From Escherichia phage AV125: a stretch of DNA of 64,000 nucleotides. The stretch lies in sequence record OR352955.1. The stretch is one strand, 5' to 3'. The translations under genes and the position numbers were made by a program. The notes under the pieces were generated by a model. It saw only the letters and a list, made by a program, of their open reading frames with translations, did not search any database and was not told the DNA's origin. The stretch's first letter is position 1. The number at the start of each line of letters is the position of its first letter. Below are positions 8,210 through 62,021 of the stretch, piece after piece.

Positions 8210-8524
8210 ATGTCAGAAGAACTTAAAGAATTTTATCAAGCCTATCATAATTGGCTGTTAGCTGGTGCTCCAGATAATAATCCTTTCTGGCACGATAAAG
8301 GTTTGTGCAGTTGCCTCTATCTTTGGTCTGGTGGTTATGATGACCTAAATTATGAAATGCAAATGCAATTTCGAGAAGCAGGATTGTCTGAAGAATACCC
8401 GTTTGATGACGGAGACTGGTTTAAATATGATTTTGCACAAAGAAACGGGCTATTGCATTTGAATGCTGCCCGTATAAGATGGGTAAAAGATCATGCTACA
8501 CAGGAGGATGTGCAATGCCAATAG
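8210..8524 (+). CDS. family A small protein (paralog 3 of 7)
   Basis: FYQAYHNWLLAGAP, KGLCSCL, EEYPFD, RIRWVKDH. Confidence 0.7.
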   Translation: MSEELKEFYQAYHNWLLAGAPDNNPFWHDKGLCSCLYLWSGGYDDLNYEMQMQFREAGLSEEYPFDDGDWFKYDFAQRNGLLHLNAARIRWVKDHATQEDVQCQ

Positions 8525-8715
8525 TGTTTAGTTTCTTGGTAATTGTTATGGTTGTTCTTTTCGCGGCATGGCTTTGGGATTTTGACCCAGGAGCAGCGCA
8601 GCAAAGAGCTACAGACTGGAAAGAACAATGTATTGTGCTCAAACATGAACGAAATGCAGAGAAATTTCTTGACCTGGAGTGTGATCGCCTTGTAAGATAC
8701 AAGCAAGACAAATAA
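8515..8715 (+). CDS. small membrane protein
   Basis: Start at ATG 8515; MPIVFSFLVIVMVVLFAAWLW is one predicted TM segment. Confidence 0.45.
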   Translation: MPIVFSFLVIVMVVLFAAWLWDFDPGAAQQRATDWKEQCIVLKHERNAEKFLDLECDRLVRYKQDK

Positions 8716-8729
8716 CCTTGAGGTGCAAA

Positions 8730-8918
8730 ATGGTAATTGAGATTAAACTTGAGTATGCTGGCGCTGTTGCTCTGATCGCACAAATGCTTGGAGCAAAGAT
8801 TGAAGAAGTGTATATCAACGCTTGGAGCGTAGAGATTGATGTTCCTATGGACAACATTGCTAATCGCTTGCTGGTGGCAGAGTGTGAACGCACCAACATA
8901 ATCTACAAAGGAGCATAA
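8730..8918 (+). CDS. hypothetical protein
   Basis: Start at ATG 8730 (RBS GAGGTG); 62 aa. Confidence 0.45.
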   Translation: MVIEIKLEYAGAVALIAQMLGAKIEEVYINAWSVEIDVPMDNIANRLLVAECERTNIIYKGA

Positions 8919-8919
8919 T

Positions 8920-9141
8920 ATGAAAATTAGAGTTTGTGATGTATTGGGTTATGTTGGTTTTGAGAATGTTCAGATTCCTTTTGTTGTTGAAGCACATCTT
9001 GTTAGTGAGGATATGACAACATTCTTTGTTACGATAGAAGAAATGTCCAAAGTTGAGGGATGGGAGTGGTTTGAAGAAGATGTTTGGGAAGGTTGTGATT
9101 ACGTATTCTTCTCTGATGAAGTGAATGTTCTTTCGGAGTAG
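8920..9141 (+). CDS. hypothetical protein (paralog of 4603..4833)
   Basis: Shares EWF...DYVFF C-terminal motif with 4603..4833. Confidence 0.5.
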   Translation: MKIRVCDVLGYVGFENVQIPFVVEAHLVSEDMTTFFVTIEEMSKVEGWEWFEEDVWEGCDYVFFSDEVNVLSE

Positions 9142-11986: not shown

Positions 11987-12202
11987 ATGTGGATTGTCCG
12001 TCTTAAATATGATGGTCCAGGTTCTTGGGTGCATAATGTTTGTGGTTGCGATTCCGAAGAAGCAGCACACAAAGCAGGAAGAGCAGTAAGTGCCTTCTAT
12101 AATGACAAACCTCTTTGTTTAGAGATGGCAGGTGTGGTGAGCATGAGTATGTTTGAATACTACTCCTATGATATTAAAAAACATGAAGGAGAGTGGAAAT
12201 GA
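11987..12202 (+). CDS. hypothetical protein
   Basis: 71-aa ORF. Confidence 0.5.
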   Translation: MWIVRLKYDGPGSWVHNVCGCDSEEAAHKAGRAVSAFYNDKPLCLEMAGVVSMSMFEYYSYDIKKHEGEWK

Positions 12203-46507: not shown

Positions 46508-47467
46508 TTAGATTCCAATAATAGTTGCTGCTCGTTTATCTTTGGATCTGGTGTTTGCTCTACTACGTGACAAACCTCCACAAGATTCACAACGAATGAT
46601 ATCGAAAGAACTTACCGCAGTGTGGTATTGTTTACCAGTAACAACGTGAACGTGATCACTGCCACAACGAGAACAACGGACCTTCTCATCTGGGTAATAA
46701 GCGGATAAGTTAGGATGCTGTGGAATCCACGGAAGGATTTTCATATACAAATCACGGAGCGAAACAACATCACCATCATTGTAAATCTGCATACGTTCAA
46801 AAGCATCACGATCACCTTCACAACATGCTTTCCATAAAGGGAACCCCTCGTTATCCAGTTTTTCACTTTCTGTTTCGAAATATGCTCCCATTTCTTTAAG
46901 GGAGTTGGAAGGAAGTGCAAATTGTTTCTTAGCTGCCTTCAATGTATCAACAACTACATAATTAGAAGGAGGAGCCATATCGTGATATGCAAATCGTTGG
47001 TTAATGTATGCACGGTCAAACTTATATCCGTTGTGTGCCACAACTACATCTGCCTCATTCAGAAGGTTCCAAAGATCTTGGCAAAGCTCCCAATCATCTG
47101 TATGATCAATATCAAAAAGAGGATAAGAAGACAAGTTCTTACCTTCCACTTCACCAGTATACAGGTCGGCAGAAGAGTAAGATAACAAATAACCCCTACG
47201 AATTACTTGATCTGGAGAAATGAAGGCTTTGAATCGACGGAAAGTATATGCAATCTCTGGTGCAGTTTCAACATCAATAATTTTAATAACTGGTTGTTTC
47301 TTTTTAACGGGTTCTTGTTTACTTCCACTGAAACGTGCAAGGAAATCATTTACTGTGCTTTTTCTTGTTGGGCTACCTAAAACAATTGCTGCAATATTTC
47401 GAGAAGACATACCCTCTGCACTCATACTAAGGATATCTGCTTTCTGCTCTTCTGTTAATCTGCTCAC
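46508..47467 (-). CDS. DnaQ-like 3'-5' exonuclease (DexA-like) with N-terminal HTH and C-terminal zinc ribbon
   Basis: Exo I IIDVETAPE, Exo II VVVAHNGYKFDRAYI, Exo III YNDGDV; CSRCGS...CESCGG. Confidence 0.7.
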   Translation of the reverse strand: MSRLTEEQKADILSMSAEGMSSRNIAAIVLGSPTRKSTVNDFLARFSGSKQEPVKKKQPVIKIIDVETAPEIAYTFRRFKAFISPDQVIRRGYLLSYSSADLYTGEVEGKNLSSYPLFDIDHTDDWELCQDLWNLLNEADVVVAHNGYKFDRAYINQRFAYHDMAPPSNYVVVDTLKAAKKQFALPSNSLKEMGAYFETESEKLDNEGFPLWKACCEGDRDAFERMQIYNDGDVVSLRDLYMKILPWIPQHPNLSAYYPDEKVRCSRCGSDHVHVVTGKQYHTAVSSFDIIRCESCGGLSRSRANTRSKDKRAATIIGI

Positions 47468-48153
47468 TCTGCCTCCTGTTGCGAGATGTATGACTGAAGC
47501 ATACTCTCAAATGTTGTATCGTCATTATCCCAGCGTTTCATGTATACCAACTGGAAAATTGTTTCTATCCATTCATCTGTTGTCATATGGACTTCTTCTC
47601 CATCCCAAGAAGTAAAATTAACACCATCTGGGAACCATGAGTAGTAAGTATCTTTAACTGTTTGGAAAAGTTCTGCTTGAGTTTTACAAGCTGAAAGAAG
47701 ATTAAAACAAGTAATATCTCCGAACTTAATATCAAAATCTTGATAAGGTCGGATACTATCTGTTTTATCTCCCATTAGCATCTGATATGCTAACCAGTAA
47801 CTGCCCCAACCTTTAACTTCTTTCTTTTTACCTTTATCTACGATCCATATATCGCCAATAGACTCGTCAATAAGAATTATATCTGGATTTTTAAATACTC
47901 CATCCTCTTTGTAGAAATTAAAAAGGATACTAGGAGTATGTAAACTATCTTTATCTATAGACACTACGATATAAGAAAATTTACCCGTCCTTTTATAATC
48001 TTTATAACCTTGGAAACCATACTTCTCTAACTCATCATCAGCCTCTATTACAGTAACAACATCACCATTGTGGAACTCCACAAGATAATCTTTGGTTTCT
48101 GAAAGCTGAAGTGGTTTGATATCTAATCGTTCAGACTTATATTCTACAGGCAT
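47464..48153 (-). CDS. FEN/RNase H-like 5'-3' exonuclease (ATG-initiated portion; frame is open a further 441 nt upstream)
   Basis: WLAYQMLMGDKTDSIRP resembles the FEN/T4 RNase H helix-3-turn-helix GDKxDN motif; acidic clusters ILIDESIGDIWIVD. Confidence 0.6.
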   Translation of the reverse strand: MPVEYKSERLDIKPLQLSETKDYLVEFHNGDVVTVIEADDELEKYGFQGYKDYKRTGKFSYIVVSIDKDSLHTPSILFNFYKEDGVFKNPDIILIDESIGDIWIVDKGKKKEVKGWGSYWLAYQMLMGDKTDSIRPYQDFDIKFGDITCFNLLSACKTQAELFQTVKDTYYSWFPDGVNFTSWDGEEVHMTTDEWIETIFQLVYMKRWDNDDTTFESMLQSYISQQEAE

Positions 48154-48594
48154 TTTGAAGGCGTGTCTGAAAGTTTTTCCTACGCCAATAACTCCGCAAT
48201 ATTTTTCTAAACGTAGATGTTTTAGAATACCTAAGACTTTTGTTTTAGCTGCTTGGAAGGTGTGTCCGATATCTTCTGGCGGGTATTGCTTATCAATGAT
48301 TTCGAACTCTTCCTTTGTGAAGGGACGTTTGTTTTTGGAGGCTCTTTCTGCATTTGTATCTCCTAGCCAACCTCCAATTTTAGTCTTGCTTTTACCCCAA
48401 AACTCTGTCTTATTTTTAAATTCCTTTTGAGCACCTGAAGGGATGTGCTTCGCAATGATTGTTCTTTTCTCTAATGCAGACGCTGCTTGGAAAGCGATCT
48501 GATCATAATCAATTGCAGCTATTGTTTCTTCGTTGACATATAAATGAAGATCTTCAGGTTTAATTAAAATATAACCGCTAATATTTCCCCCTAA

Positions 48595-48804
48595 TTATTC
48601 ATCGTCATCCTCTGTTGAGAATGTTTTAGTATACGGACATTGACGACTTTTCGGGATTGCTATAACTTCATCTTGGTTAGCGTTAGAATAGTAGCAATAT
48701 TTTGTATTGCCATTAACTTCAGAATCAGACAAGATTAAAGTAATTTGACCTGCTGCTACTGTGAAACTAAAAGCTAAAAGAACGACTGTCAGAATCTTTT
48801 TCAT
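48595..48804 (-). CDS. small secreted protein
   Basis: MKKILTVVLLAFSFTVAAGQ signal-like N-terminus, acidic C-terminus; RBS AGGAGG. Confidence 0.55.
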   Translation of the reverse strand: MKKILTVVLLAFSFTVAAGQITLILSDSEVNGNTKYCYYSNANQDEVIAIPKSRQCPYTKTFSTEDDDE

Positions 48805-48813
48805 AACGCCTCC

Positions 48814-48843
48814 TAAAAAGCCTACCTCATTAAGTAGGTAGGC
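48814..48843 (-). terminator. rho-independent terminator (minus strand)
   Basis: GCCTACCT-loop-AGGTAGGC then U-run on the minus-strand transcript, immediately before RBS of 48804 gene. Confidence 0.55.
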
Positions 48844-48876
48844 ATAATATCATAACTAATCCCGCAAGTCAAGAAC

Positions 48877-49755
48877 TTATTTAAGGATTGTTGCTTTGGT
48901 TAAATCTTCCATCAGACCTCGAATCTCATTGAAGCACAGAAGGACTGAAGCTTCAATACTGCCTTCTTCGTCTGCAAAATATTTCGGAAAACGTAGTTTA
49001 GAAAGTTTAAACTCTTTATCCACTACAAAATCTACAACACCATCATATTCAAGACCGATTGCAACCACATCTTTACCATCTTCTTTTAGTTCGACAGCTT
49101 TAGACTCGTATAGAGATTCTTTACTCCAAACAACAACACCCTCGCTATCCTCCATTTTGATATAATTTCCGAGAGTAATACGATCTGCTTCGTGATTCTC
49201 CAGCAATTCACCAAAACCTTTTACAATAGCTTCTTCGTGCACACTAAAACCTACCGAAGGGAAAGTCCCCAGAACGGAACGGAGGAAAGAAGTAATCTCT
49301 TCTGCAACCTTTTTACTTCCATTAAGAACATAAAGAAGATTCGTAGTTTTATCCAAGACAACATAATTAAAGAAATCTTCAGGTTCTGTTTCAGGCAATA
49401 GTGCAAATTCAATATCTTCCTTCATTGCTTTGACTACTTCTTTATCGACATAAAACTCTTTACCTTCGCTCTCCATGTCCTGACGCATTTCTTCTAGACG
49501 TTCATTCAAAATACGTTTAACTTTCTTTTTATCTACCTTTTTCACAGATTGACCTACATTAAGCAGTTCAAGATCTGAAAACTCTTTTACAAATTTAGAG
49601 TCATCTTCGAAACGAACAAGACCGATAGTGTGTGACTGGGAGCCTTCTGCTGTTACAAATTCCAGAGGAATATCTGTAATGCTGTTAATGGATGCTACAG
49701 AAGCATTGTCACCAACAACCATAGGCAGAGCGGATTTAAAAGATTTTACAAACAT
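48877..49755 (-). CDS. hypothetical protein
   Basis: 292-aa acidic ORF. Confidence 0.55.
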   Translation of the reverse strand: MFVKSFKSALPMVVGDNASVASINSITDIPLEFVTAEGSQSHTIGLVRFEDDSKFVKEFSDLELLNVGQSVKKVDKKKVKRILNERLEEMRQDMESEGKEFYVDKEVVKAMKEDIEFALLPETEPEDFFNYVVLDKTTNLLYVLNGSKKVAEEITSFLRSVLGTFPSVGFSVHEEAIVKGFGELLENHEADRITLGNYIKMEDSEGVVVWSKESLYESKAVELKEDGKDVVAIGLEYDGVVDFVVDKEFKLSKLRFPKYFADEEGSIEASVLLCFNEIRGLMEDLTKATILK

Positions 49756-59894: not shown

Positions 59895-59966
59895 GGCCCT
59901 GTAGCTCAATGGGAGAGCTGTCGGCTCATAACCGATAGGTAGCTGGATCGAAACCAGCCAGGGCCA
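59895..59966 (+). tRNA. tRNA-Met (anticodon CAT; could also be Ile2 or initiator)
   Basis: Cloverleaf folded by hand: acceptor GGCCCTG/CAGGGCC, anticodon loop CTCATAA, T-loop ATCGAAA; CCA encoded. Confidence 0.8.
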
Positions 59967-59971
59967 CCAAA

Positions 59972-60043
59972 GTCTTTATGGTGTAATGGATAGCACAGGA
60001 GTCTTCTAAACTCTTAGTCAAGGTTCGATTCCTTGTAAAGACA
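59972..60043 (+). tRNA. tRNA-Arg (anticodon TCT)
   Basis: Acceptor GTCTTTA/TAAAGAC, anticodon loop CTTCTAA, T-arm CAAGG-TTCGATT-CCTTG; CCA encoded. Confidence 0.8.
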
Positions 60044-60242
60044 CCAGAACATTTTAACATGAATTAGCTCAAGTGATTTGAACCCACTACTGATCATGGT
60101 GGCAGAGAATGAGGCAAGTATGTCAGACATTATAAACAAAGGCCACGGTTATATTAGAAGACATAAATGCTCGAAGAGCACCGTTCGTGGAGAACGGGGG
60201 TTGGTGGAGTCACCATTCATGGTAAAATGTTTTAAAAAACTA

Positions 60243-60271
60243 TTGACAACAAACATTATTTTATGTTAGAT
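60243..60271 (+). promoter_or_regulatory. sigma70-like promoter within tRNA cluster
   Basis: TTGACA 60243-60248, 17-bp spacer, TTAGAT; 10 nt before tRNA-Ser. Confidence 0.55.
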
Positions 60272-60280
60272 TATAAGTAT

Positions 60281-60368
60281 GGAAGGGCAAATCGATGTGG
60301 CGACGAAAACGGTCTTGAAAACCGCCGAGCTTGAAAGAGCCTTGGGAGTTCGACTCTCCCTCCTTCCG
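60281..60368 (+). tRNA. tRNA-Ser (anticodon TGA), class II
   Basis: Acceptor GGAAGGG/TCCTTCC, anticodon loop CTTGAAA, long variable arm, T-arm GGGAG-TTCGACT-CTCCC; CCA encoded. Confidence 0.8.
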
Positions 60369-60376
60369 CCAGATTA

Positions 60377-60459
60377 GGTAGATTGGTGAAATGGTAGCCA
60401 CGACAGTTTGCTAAACTGTAGTCGGAAACGGCGTGTAGGTTCGAGTCCTACATCTACCG
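60377..60459 (+). tRNA. tRNA-Ser (anticodon GCT), class II
   Basis: Acceptor GGTAGAT/ATCTACC, anticodon stem ACAGT/ACTGT, loop TTGCTAA, variable arm with GAAA loop; CCA encoded. Confidence 0.8.
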
Positions 60460-60461
60460 CC

Positions 60462-60592
60462 AAGTTCTTTTTAATGTAGCTTACTTTAGCAGAGTAAATC
60501 TTCGGCAAGTGGCGGTAACCACTTTACCGATACCTCATAGTTAGTGGTGTGAACACTGGCTATTTTAAAAAGAATTTAAATATTAGTATTTA
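60462..60592 (+). ncRNA. candidate small RNA between tRNAs
   Basis: 131-nt spacer with no tRNA fold and no ORF; internal GTGG...CCAC complementarity; T4 carries small stable RNAs at the equivalent place. Confidence 0.3.
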
Positions 60593-60677
60593 GGTGAGTT
60601 AATTCCGTAGGGGTAGCGGGGCAGACTGTAAATCTGTTATCATTGCGATTCGGGTGGTTCGACTCCATCACTCACCA
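60593..60677 (+). tRNA. tRNA-Tyr (anticodon GTA), class II
   Basis: Closely parallels E. coli tRNA-Tyr: GCAGACTGTAAATCTG anticodon arm, long variable arm, acceptor GGTGAGT/ACTCACC; CCA encoded. Confidence 0.8.
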
Positions 60678-60686
60678 CCAAATTAA

Positions 60687-60769
60687 GATGAGTTGGCTGA
60701 ATGGTTTAAGCGGCGGACTGTTAATCCGTGTTCGAAAGAACAATATAGGTTCGAATCCTATACTCATCG
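60687..60769 (+). tRNA. class II-type tRNA with GTT (Asn) anticodon by loop geometry
   Basis: Perfect 7-bp acceptor GATGAGT/ACTCATC, T-arm ATAGG-TTCGAAT-CCTAT, 3-bp D-stem, 15-nt variable arm (GTTC-GAAA-GAAC), anticodon loop CTGTTAA closed by GCGGA/TCCGT. Confidence 0.5.
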
Positions 60770-60779
60770 CCAGAATTAT

Positions 60780-60856
60780 GGACTTGTAGAGTTAAGGTAA
60801 ACCCCCAGTCGCCAATAGGCTTCTGGAATTGCAGGTATCGAATCCTGCCGAGTCCC
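60780..60856 (+). pseudogene. tRNA-like element with aberrant anticodon arm
   Basis: 7-bp acceptor GGACTTG/CGAGTCC and T-arm GCAGG...TCGAAT...CCTGC present, but no canonical 5-bp/7-nt anticodon stem-loop and no CCA. Confidence 0.3.
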
Positions 60857-60862
60857 AGCATT

Positions 60863-60934
60863 GCTCCTATAGTATAATGGCTATTACAACGGTTTTGTAA
60901 TCCGTGGATCTCTGTTCGATTCAGTGTGGGAGCA
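60863..60934 (+). tRNA. tRNA-Thr (anticodon TGT)
   Basis: Acceptor GCTCCTA/TGGGAGC, anticodon loop TTTGTAA with a 4-bp stem, T-loop TTCGATT; CCA encoded. Confidence 0.65.
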
Positions 60935-60937
60935 CCA

Positions 60938-61200
60938 ACACAACATTAAGAGCACTGTGATTGATCGTCGTATCCTGTGCACAAGGTCTGCTCGAAAGAC
61001 AGTGTTCTTAGTATTGTGTTGATCACAAAAAGAGTCACCCGAAACTTGACCGGAGTAGGGTTGGATGGGGCAAAATGAGAAGCGGCTCTCCCATCGACAG
61101 CAACGAAGAATAATATTTGACTTTGGTTTTGTATTATTTTAAGTTAGCTTACCGAACGTAGGGCTAGTCACCCAACGGGATACTCGTCACTGTCCCAATC
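60938..61200 (+). ncRNA. candidate structured RNA or spacer within tRNA cluster
   Basis: About 260 nt without ORF or tRNA fold; CACTGTG ... ACAGTG and other inverted repeats. Confidence 0.25.
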
Positions 61201-61210
61201 AATAAAAGTC

Positions 61211-61240
61211 TTGACAACAAATAGTAAAATGTAGTATAGT
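61211..61240 (+). promoter_or_regulatory. sigma70-like promoter within tRNA cluster
   Basis: TTGACA 61211-61216, 18-bp spacer, TATAGT; 11 nt before tRNA-Gly. Confidence 0.55.
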
Positions 61241-61251
61241 AAATATATATG

Positions 61252-61322
61252 GCGTTCTTGGTGTAGCGGTAGCATTCCGTCCTTCCAAGTCGGCGGCACG
61301 AGTTCGATCCTCGTAGAACGCT
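61252..61322 (+). tRNA. tRNA-Gly (anticodon TCC)
   Basis: Acceptor GCGTTCT/AGAACGC, anticodon loop CTTCCAA, T-arm ACGAG-TTCGATC-CTCGT; CCA encoded; D-arm not cleanly resolved by hand. Confidence 0.65.
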
Positions 61323-61423
61323 CCAAATTATTTAATAAAGGGTTGCCAGAAAACTTTCTCTTTTACTCATGGTTTTCTCCTTCTCTCACACTTCTTCTGG
61401 TTGCCCTTCATTAAATGATTTAT

Positions 61424-61496
61424 TGGTTTGTAGTGTAGTCCGGTAGCACACGACACTTTGACTGTCGTAGGTTTGGTTCAAATCCAGACAGACCAG
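61424..61496 (+). tRNA. tRNA-Gln (anticodon TTG)
   Basis: U1-A72 acceptor TGGTTTG/CAGACCA, anticodon stem CGACA/TGTCG, loop CTTTGAC, T-loop TTCAAAT; CCA encoded. Confidence 0.8.
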
Positions 61497-61592
61497 CCAT
61501 ATAACAAAGGTGAGTCACTACCTTAAGTGTGAAGTTAAAAACGAGGAGCCGCCGAACACTTTCTTTTGCGGTGTACCTTTAGAATGTTATCA

Positions 61593-61666
61593 CGGGACGT
61601 AGCACAGCTTGGTAGTGCGCTCGCTTTGGGAGCGAGAGGTCGAGTGTTCGAATCACTCCGTCCCGA
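61593..61666 (+). tRNA. tRNA-Pro (anticodon TGG)
   Basis: C1-G72 acceptor CGGGACG/CGTCCCG as in E. coli tRNA-Pro, D-stem GCAC/GTGC, anticodon stem CTCGC/GCGAG, loop TTTGGGA; CCA encoded. Confidence 0.85.
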
Positions 61667-61675
61667 CCAATTAAA

Positions 61676-61746
61676 TGTTTCGTAGTTCAATGGTAGAACC
61701 CACGACTGATAATCGTGAGACACAAGTTCGATTCTTGTCGAAACAA
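61676..61746 (+). tRNA. tRNA-Ile (anticodon GAT)
   Basis: Acceptor TGTTTCG/CGAAACA, D-stem GTTC/GAAC, anticodon stem CACGA/TCGTG, loop CTGATAA; CCA encoded. Confidence 0.8.
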
Positions 61747-61751
61747 CCAGT

Positions 61752-61821
61752 TTCCCGTTAGACTTACAGGATAAGAGTTCCACAGCTTATTGTGATGCTG
61801 GTTCGAATCCAGCACGGGATA
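61752..61821 (+). pseudogene. tRNA-like element with non-canonical anticodon region
   Basis: Acceptor TTCCCGT/ACGGGAT (6 of 7 pairs) and perfect T-arm GCTGG-TTCGAAT-CCAGC, but the central region only forms ATAAG/CTTAT with a 10-nt loop; no CCA. Confidence 0.3.
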
Positions 61822-61827
61822 CATAAT

Positions 61828-61903
61828 AGCGGGATAGAGGAGTCTGGTCGTCCTCGCCAGTTTCATATGCTGGAGATCATCGGTTCAAATCCGATTCCCG
61901 CCT
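61828..61903 (+). tRNA. tRNA with CAT anticodon (Met or Ile2), A1-C72 acceptor mismatch
   Basis: Anticodon stem CCAGT/GCTGG, loop TTCATAT, T-arm ATCGG-TTCAAAT-CCGAT, acceptor AGCGGGA/TCCCGCC; CCA encoded. Confidence 0.65.
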
Positions 61904-62021
61904 CCAAATATCGCTTGCCAGCGGTATCTTTGAAGACCTTGCCTGGTTCCTTCTAAGATGGAGGGGTGCGACTCCTTAACGCACAATTATAATAAAGCAT
62001 TTCAACTTAACAGTATTTACT

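Follow-up and report, generated by a model that had tools for sequence, protein, structure and literature searches.

The locus studied here raises the question of where translation begins in a gene whose reading frame opens without any of the usual start codons. The gene encodes a putative exonuclease and lies on the minus strand of a 64,000-nt stretch (hereafter, the window) of the genome of Escherichia phage AV125 (sequence record OR352955.1), which belongs to the genus Phapecoctavirus, subfamily Stephanstirmvirinae. The TAA codon of the upstream gene (48597-48595) is followed by 376 open codons up to a TGA codon (47466-47464), and the earliest in-frame ATG, GTG or TTG is the ATG at 48153-48151, located 147 codons past the stop codon. 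An earlier note made from this sequence had pointed out the open frame and an AGGGGG motif followed after 4 nt by an in-frame ATT. Both observations were confirmed by reading the sequence, which 3' of the TAA runs TTAGGGGGAAAT ATT AGC GGT TAT; the order is AGGGGG (48592-48587), AAAT and ATT (48582-48580), and the ATG lies 143 codons past this ATT. Judging from the comparison of related phages described below, the ATT is almost certainly the start codon, and the full-length protein is very probably made from AUU. Of the proposal that the enzyme has about 376 residues, the long open frame was upheld, whereas the length counted from the ATT is 372 amino acids.

The start-less beginning of the frame was ranked among those of the 50 stop-to-stop open reading frames (ORFs) of the window that span 150 codons or more. 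The nuclease leader was the longest of all (147 codons versus 55 for the second and a median of 5.5), and the second-ranking ORF (8496-8948, minus strand) is a chance ORF on the strand opposite to real genes. The remainder of the nuclease gene contains 9 canonical start codons in 229 codons; at this frequency, the probability of finding none in 143 codons was calculated by hand to be approximately 0.003. Because of this low probability and the first rank among the 50 ORFs, the leader could be considered to exceed chance.

The start region was then compared among 103 related loci collected from phage records, IMG/VR and metagenomes, at each of which the frame was followed from the in-frame stop preceding the gene as far as the DxD motif. 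The codon aligned with the ATT was ATT, ATC, ATA or CTG, and never ATG, GTG or TTG, in each of the 21 distinct relatives sharing at least 50% identity. ATT was found in Phapecoctavirus, Justusliebigvirus and loci L038, L039 and L055; ATC was found in phiWec179/L009, L012, L013, L026-L030 and L033; ATA was found in L014/L034/L035, L031, L032 and L037; and CTG was found in L015. A Shine-Dalgarno (SD) core, GGAGG or, in Phapecoctavirus, GGGGG, precedes this codon by 4-5 nt throughout the clade; only L055 departs from this, with a weaker AGGA core at a distance of 3 nt. The outgroups have ATG (Certrevirus, L018, PAK_P5), GTG (L042-L047 and others) or TTG (Vequintavirus) at this position. The Vequintavirus and Certrevirus exonucleases, which belong to the same family (37-42% identity), share the position of the N-terminus and the SD spacing with the clade but differ from it in having canonical start codons. 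The earlier note had asked whether the homologs normally begin at the position of Met 48153. They do not; the proteins of Certrevirus, Vequintavirus and PAK_P5 start at the ATT position. Of the explanations offered in that note, initiation at a noncanonical AUU codon therefore gained support, the in-frame AUU being placed behind AGGGGG.

The upstream boundary of the gene is also set by the relatives. In L013, L027, L028 and L030, an in-frame TAA directly abuts the ATC, and in Justusliebigvirus, a TGA lies 4-5 codons upstream of the aligned ATT; therefore, no start further 5' is possible. Within Phapecoctavirus, the region is 95-100% identical to 64 phage records (100% for vB_EcoM-Ro121c4YLVW), and 53 of the 64 records show no difference in the 70 nt surrounding the start. 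Three Phapecoctavirus variants were inspected, and the ATT was kept in all of them. In vB_EcoM_01, an extra G is present between the TAA and the unchanged ATT, so the spacer between these codons must be noncoding; in ASO2A/AV126, a T>C substitution in the TAA-spacer stretch likewise leaves the ATT unchanged.

Neighbour-joining analysis placed the 21 distinct proteins that have a noncanonical codon in a single clade. Over the whole tree, there are at least 10 changes of the start codon, and approximately six or seven of them, as read off the tree by eye, fall inside the clade, none being to ATG, GTG or TTG. It was reported that AUA, AUC, AUU and CUG initiate at 1-2% of the AUG level in E. coli and that the remaining noncanonical codons initiate at 0.1-1% (bioRxiv 10.1101/063800). 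The four codons of the clade are exactly these four near-cognates of the 1-2% class. Since the single-base change to ATG was fixed in no sampled lineage, the comparison suggests, with weak statistical support, that ATG is disfavoured at this codon.

The 143 codons preceding Met144 were examined as coding sequence. A tblastn search with the conceptual protein, N-terminus included, retrieved homologs from Justusliebigvirus (77% identity), Certrevirus (42%), Vequintavirus (37%), Pseudomonas PAK_P5-like phages (30%) and many others, and the upstream codons were open in every relative, down to 30% identity. When codons 2-143 were compared with those of five relatives from the clade, the proportion of nonsynonymous differences (pN) was 0.16-0.34 and that of synonymous differences (pS) was 0.71-0.90, the latter being saturated; this pattern resembled that of the C-terminal 229 codons. 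Among 51 homologs, D25 was invariant and D27 was present in at least 90%, and E180, D182, D183, D210, D212, D272 and D275 were invariant. On this comparative evidence, the codons upstream of Met144 are translated and under purifying selection.

An AlphaFold2 model was built on the 51-sequence alignment. Over its whole length, the model had a predicted local distance difference test score of 96.4 and a predicted template-modelling (TM) score of 0.90, it was ordered from approximately residue 5, and its long strands 16-25 and 127-137 preceded Met144. The best Foldseek matches were E. coli ExoIX, the T5 D15 flap endonuclease (FEN) and the DNA polymerase I (Pol I) 5' nuclease, with a probability of 1.0 and E-values from 6e-5 to 2e-3, and phage exonucleases in BFVD were matched as well. 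Both results are consistent with a PIN-like alpha/beta fold followed by a helical helix-three-turn-helix (H3TH) region. At the sequence level, phrog_107 'exonuclease' was matched with E = 1.4e-55, and PF02739 was matched by 15 of the 51 homologs (best E = 1.7e-6). Pfam searches with the window protein and with each of its halves gave nothing at E <= 1, and phmmer found no match among PDB sequences. Profile searching gave weak alignments to T5 FEN, in which YKxxR, EADD and GDxxDxI pair with the T5 FEN motifs; LMGDKTDSI, which had earlier been called H3TH-like, aligns with IMGDLGDNI of that enzyme. Taken together, the Foldseek matches, phrog_107, the PF02739 homologs and the T5 FEN motif alignment support the assignment of the protein as a divergent, predicted FEN-type 5'-3' exonuclease of the lineage of T5 D15, E. 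coli ExoIX and the phage 'exonuclease' phrog_107, in agreement with the FEN/5'-nuclease assignment of the earlier note.

The protein shares the fold and the YKxxR/EADD/GDxxD motifs with T5 D15 FEN, ExoIX (Xni) and the Pol I 5' nuclease (PF02739/PF01367), but its identity to them is just 11-14% and the TM-score is 0.4 (normalized by query) or 0.58 (by target). It is approximately 100 aa longer than the members of this family owing to insertions at approximately 39-100 and 218-259. The position of T5 Asp68 (VLGDKGK) appears to be occupied by Gly or Val in the window protein (GVIGVGK), although the alignment is weak here. If translation began at Met144, the first carboxylate site and part of the core would be missing from the product. 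Because the first 143 codons are protein-coding and the fold requires them, the gene can be regarded as complete and untruncated, and the suggestion that the enzyme is a truncated one was rejected.

Several interrupted or shortened relatives were encountered. Split genes are suggested by half-length relatives in BFVD (approximately 180 aa; A0A0N7CD22 and A0A0N7CDW5). In some Certrevirus-like and Pseudomonas phages (L005/KT353109 and ON712643), an HNH endonuclease gene is located beside or under the exonuclease match. In L036 (CYGL01000168.1), a Justusliebigvirus-like metagenomic copy, the nuclease ORF is cut to 263 codons, probably by a frameshift or an assembly error.

Initiation at this site may be pictured as follows. 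The AGGGGG (GGAGG in relatives) 4 nt upstream would position the ribosome at AUU 48582-48580. The initiator tRNA would decode the AUU, so the protein would begin with N-formylmethionine. AUU, AUC, AUA and CUG, as starts discriminated against by initiation factor 3 (IF3), might yield approximately 1-25% of the AUG level depending on the context, and ribosomes ending on the upstream gene, 12 nt away, may boost initiation by coupling. The initiator tRNA decodes these four codons poorly, and IF3 rejects such complexes. AUU starts are repressed by IF3 (PMC5499595, PMC2268962). In single-cistron reporters, AUU was 6-8 times weaker than AUG; when the infC start site was placed behind a translated cistron, the disadvantage of AUU relative to AUG at that site was just 4-fold (PMC3592434).

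The phage gene may be set beside known cases. To our knowledge, infC (encoding IF3) and pcnB are the only two confirmed AUU-initiated genes of E. coli. In infC, AUU or AUC serves autoregulation, and in pcnB, AUU limits expression (PMC5499595, PMC2268962). With respect to the features of an infC/pcnB-type start, the phage gene has a near-cognate codon at the proper SD distance, and its first canonical codon lies past invariant residues. By analogy with infC and pcnB, the nuclease dose is probably kept low or dependent on IF3 activity. The likeness has limits: the phage gene encodes a nuclease and not a translation factor, so no obvious autoregulatory loop exists, and the phage clade also uses AUA and CUG.

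Some points weigh against initiation at the AUU and must be considered. ATT, ATC and ATA all encode Ile, and their interchange taken by itself could pass for synonymous drift within a gene. That approximately 16 lineages lack ATG carries only weak statistical significance, and a spacer of 4 nt is near the lower limit of what is usual. The evidence for the AUU start is indirect and comes from sequence comparison and structure modelling. As for the regulatory purpose (low dose, IF3 sensing), it is purely inferred and much less certain than the AUU start. Only the stops preceding the codon, its spacing from the SD sequence, the occurrence of CTG and the outgroups' canonical start codons argue for initiation over drift between Ile codons.

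Among the other readings of the locus, the one that survived best was that AUU is used mainly by ribosomes that have just terminated upstream (reinitiation or coupling), so that the nuclease dose is tied to the upstream gene. This is possible, although we consider it more doubtful than probable. For most clade members, 0-12 nt separate the upstream stop from the start, with frequent overlap between this stop and the SD sequence (TAGGAGG), and an infC-type AUU site gave twice the yield behind a translated cistron in a reporter (PMC3592434). The same tight spacing is observed in the outgroups with ATG or TTG and is thus not specific to the noncanonical clade, and the strong SD sequence permits de novo initiation. 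In any case, such coupling is a variant of AUU initiation and not an alternative to the AUU start.

A start at another near-cognate slightly downstream, for example, the ATT at codon 5 or 7, appears improbable. There are several ATT and ATA codons within the first 10 codons, but they are at least 16 nt from the SD sequence, and it is the codon 4-5 nt past the SD sequence that aligns with ATG, GTG or TTG of the outgroups. Moreover, this SD-proximal codon alone is a near-cognate without exception, that of L015 being CTG.

It is highly improbable that only a 229-aa protein is made from ATG 48153, with the 143 upstream codons being an untranslated remnant. Such a protein is annotated in RefSeq and in most GenBank records, and this ATG is the first canonical start codon. 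However, no GGAGG-like motif was found 5' of the ATG (ccttcaaaATG), so it would be used without an SD sequence, and the position of Met144 is never the start in homologs with canonical starts. The purifying selection on the upstream codons, their openness in all relatives down to 30% identity and the location of D25/D27 and of the two long modelled strands upstream of Met144 also contradict this reading.

Even less credible is a fusion of the nuclease with the upstream 69-aa ORF by stop readthrough or programmed frameshifting. In the window, the two ORFs are in one frame with the TAA alone between them, but Justusliebigvirus, the L013 group and, owing to the 1-nt indel, even vB_EcoM_01 of Phapecoctavirus itself show another arrangement of the two frames. 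No slippery sequence is present, the signal peptide of the upstream protein would make no sense on a DNA nuclease, and those homologs that have a canonical start codon begin where the ATT lies. Because the frame relation varies and the upstream protein carries a signal peptide, fusion was excluded as a conserved mechanism. Finally, a sequencing or assembly error that removed the true start, or a pseudogene in the AV125 isolate, explains the missing canonical start and nothing more, and this reading, of which the earlier note had suggested the sequencing error, was dismissed as having almost no chance of being correct, since the region recurs in 64 independently sequenced Phapecoctavirus genomes and near-cognates occupy the same place in other genera and in metagenomic relatives.

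RNA elements that might assist an AUU start were sought. Rfam searching of 47000-49500 revealed no RNA family, and the folding of the initiation region was as stable as that of shuffled sequence (z = -0.06); therefore, no riboswitch or hairpin mechanism is indicated. The 64-kb window was scanned for an SD sequence with a near-cognate codon upstream of the first canonical start. A long leader was found in the nuclease gene only; the other hits lay one codon before a normal ATG, and a genome-wide habit of noncanonical starts was thus rejected for the window, none of whose other genes requires such a start. Separately, an ATT 5 nt past GAGGT was seen at 12103 (minus strand) in front of an 89-codon ORF, whose first canonical start follows 11 codons later; it is probably due to chance.

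A phage tRNA reading AUU as an initiator was also considered and rejected: none of the tRNAs in the window, which include Ile(GAT) and two Met(CAT), combines an AUU-complementary anticodon with initiator features. The window carries a cluster of 10 tRNA genes on the plus strand (59895-61906; Met, Arg, Ser, Asn, Thr, Gly, Gln, Pro, Ile and Met). When folded by hand, tRNA-Met(CAT) at 61828-61906 (plus strand) displayed an A1.C72 mismatch, G2:C71, C3:G70, A11:U24 and a TTCAAAT T-loop, which are initiator-type (formylation) features; its anticodon stem, CCAGU/GCUGG, is without the three consecutive G:C pairs used in selection by the ribosomal P-site and IF3. This tRNA may be a phage initiator-like tRNA, and any link between it and the AUU start is speculation.

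The existing annotation of the gene was inspected. RefSeq and most GenBank records contain a 229-aa 'putative exonuclease' or 'RNaseH' starting from ATG 48153, and BFVD entry A0A6B9WXG3 is this shortened form. In Justusliebigvirus (phi92, ECGD1 and SD2), the ortholog is annotated from an internal GTG within the conserved DYDQVAFQ motif, with the remark 'No RBS identified; weak Prodigal statistics' in the phi92 record, and in phiWec179, it is annotated from an internal TTG. Altogether, the gene is shortened in 9 of the 10 records inspected. The exception is ESCO13 (KX552041.2), whose start region is identical to that of the window and whose coding sequence AQM50955.1 (372 aa) starts at the ATT. 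This coding sequence is a database feature only, and the ESCO13 genome announcement is silent on the ATT start (PMC5374246). In the literature searched, no description of the ATT start was found, nor one of internal AUU initiation in T4 gene 26. AUU initiation as such was known before and the correct coding sequence is already present in one record, while the clade-wide conservation, the switching among four codons and the near-universal misannotation appear to be undescribed in the literature searched. Gene callers limited to ATG, GTG and TTG will go on repeating the shortened annotation.

The coordinates of the gene, its signals and its neighbours are collected in Table 1.

Table 1. Positions of the nuclease gene, its initiation signals, conserved motifs and flanking genes in the window.
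Feature	Position	Strand	Basis or remark
Proposed full coding sequence, FEN-like 5'-3' exonuclease, 372 aa	47464..48582	-	open frame; orthologs align from ATT; AlphaFold2 model; KX552041.2 coding sequence
Proposed initiation codon ATT (AUU)	48580..48582	-	in frame; 4 nt past GGGGG core; near-cognate in relatives
Shine-Dalgarno sequence AGGGGG (GGAGG in most relatives)	48587..48592	-	read from sequence
Upstream-gene TAA and 12-nt noncoding spacer holding the SD sequence	48583..48597	-	spacer variants; differing frame relation between genera
Codons 2-143, N-terminal nuclease part omitted by current annotation	48154..48579	-	purifying selection; D25/D27; modelled strands
Invariant D25	48510-48508	-	N-terminal part
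D27	48504-48502	-	N-terminal part
Internal ATG, Met144, start in RefSeq and most GenBank records	48151..48153	-	annotation
Acidic motif E180-A-D182-D183	48034..48045	-	invariant; aligns with EADD of T5 FEN
Acidic motif D210-K-D212	47947..47955	-	invariant
H3TH-type motif G271-D272-K-T-D275	47758..47772	-	D272 and D275 invariant; aligns with GDLGDNI of T5 FEN
Upstream gene, 69-aa protein, predicted signal peptide, phrog_4641	48595..48804	-	phi92 ortholog has SignalP annotation
Downstream gene, 'DNA polymerase exonuclease subunit' / 3'-5' exonuclease	46508..47467	-	GTG overlaps nuclease stop (GTGA)

The GTG of the downstream gene is located behind AGGAGG; in RefSeq NC_052654, the start of this gene is placed 42 nt further downstream (918 nt versus 960 nt elsewhere). 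The gene of the 69-aa signal-peptide protein, which belongs to a group of unknown function, is conserved just 5' of the nuclease. The block around the nuclease consists of DNA-metabolism genes (RdgC-like, FEN-like nuclease and DnaQ-like exonuclease), which is an odd setting for a secreted protein.

The broadest interpretation of the AUU start is that, throughout the history of Stephanstirmvirinae-like phages, selection holds the gene on four IF3-discriminated codons, with ATG being actively avoided and the IF3 or translation state of the host acting as a sensor that times or doses the 5' nuclease. We regard this as a tentative and rather unlikely proposal. If it were true, IF3 sensing would be a phage counterpart of infC autoregulation that controls a nuclease potentially damaging to both the host and the phage itself, and it would be the first conserved example outside translation-factor genes. 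With members that have stayed on AUU, AUC, AUA or CUG while diverging to 50% protein identity, the family would offer a natural experiment on the retention of weak starts.

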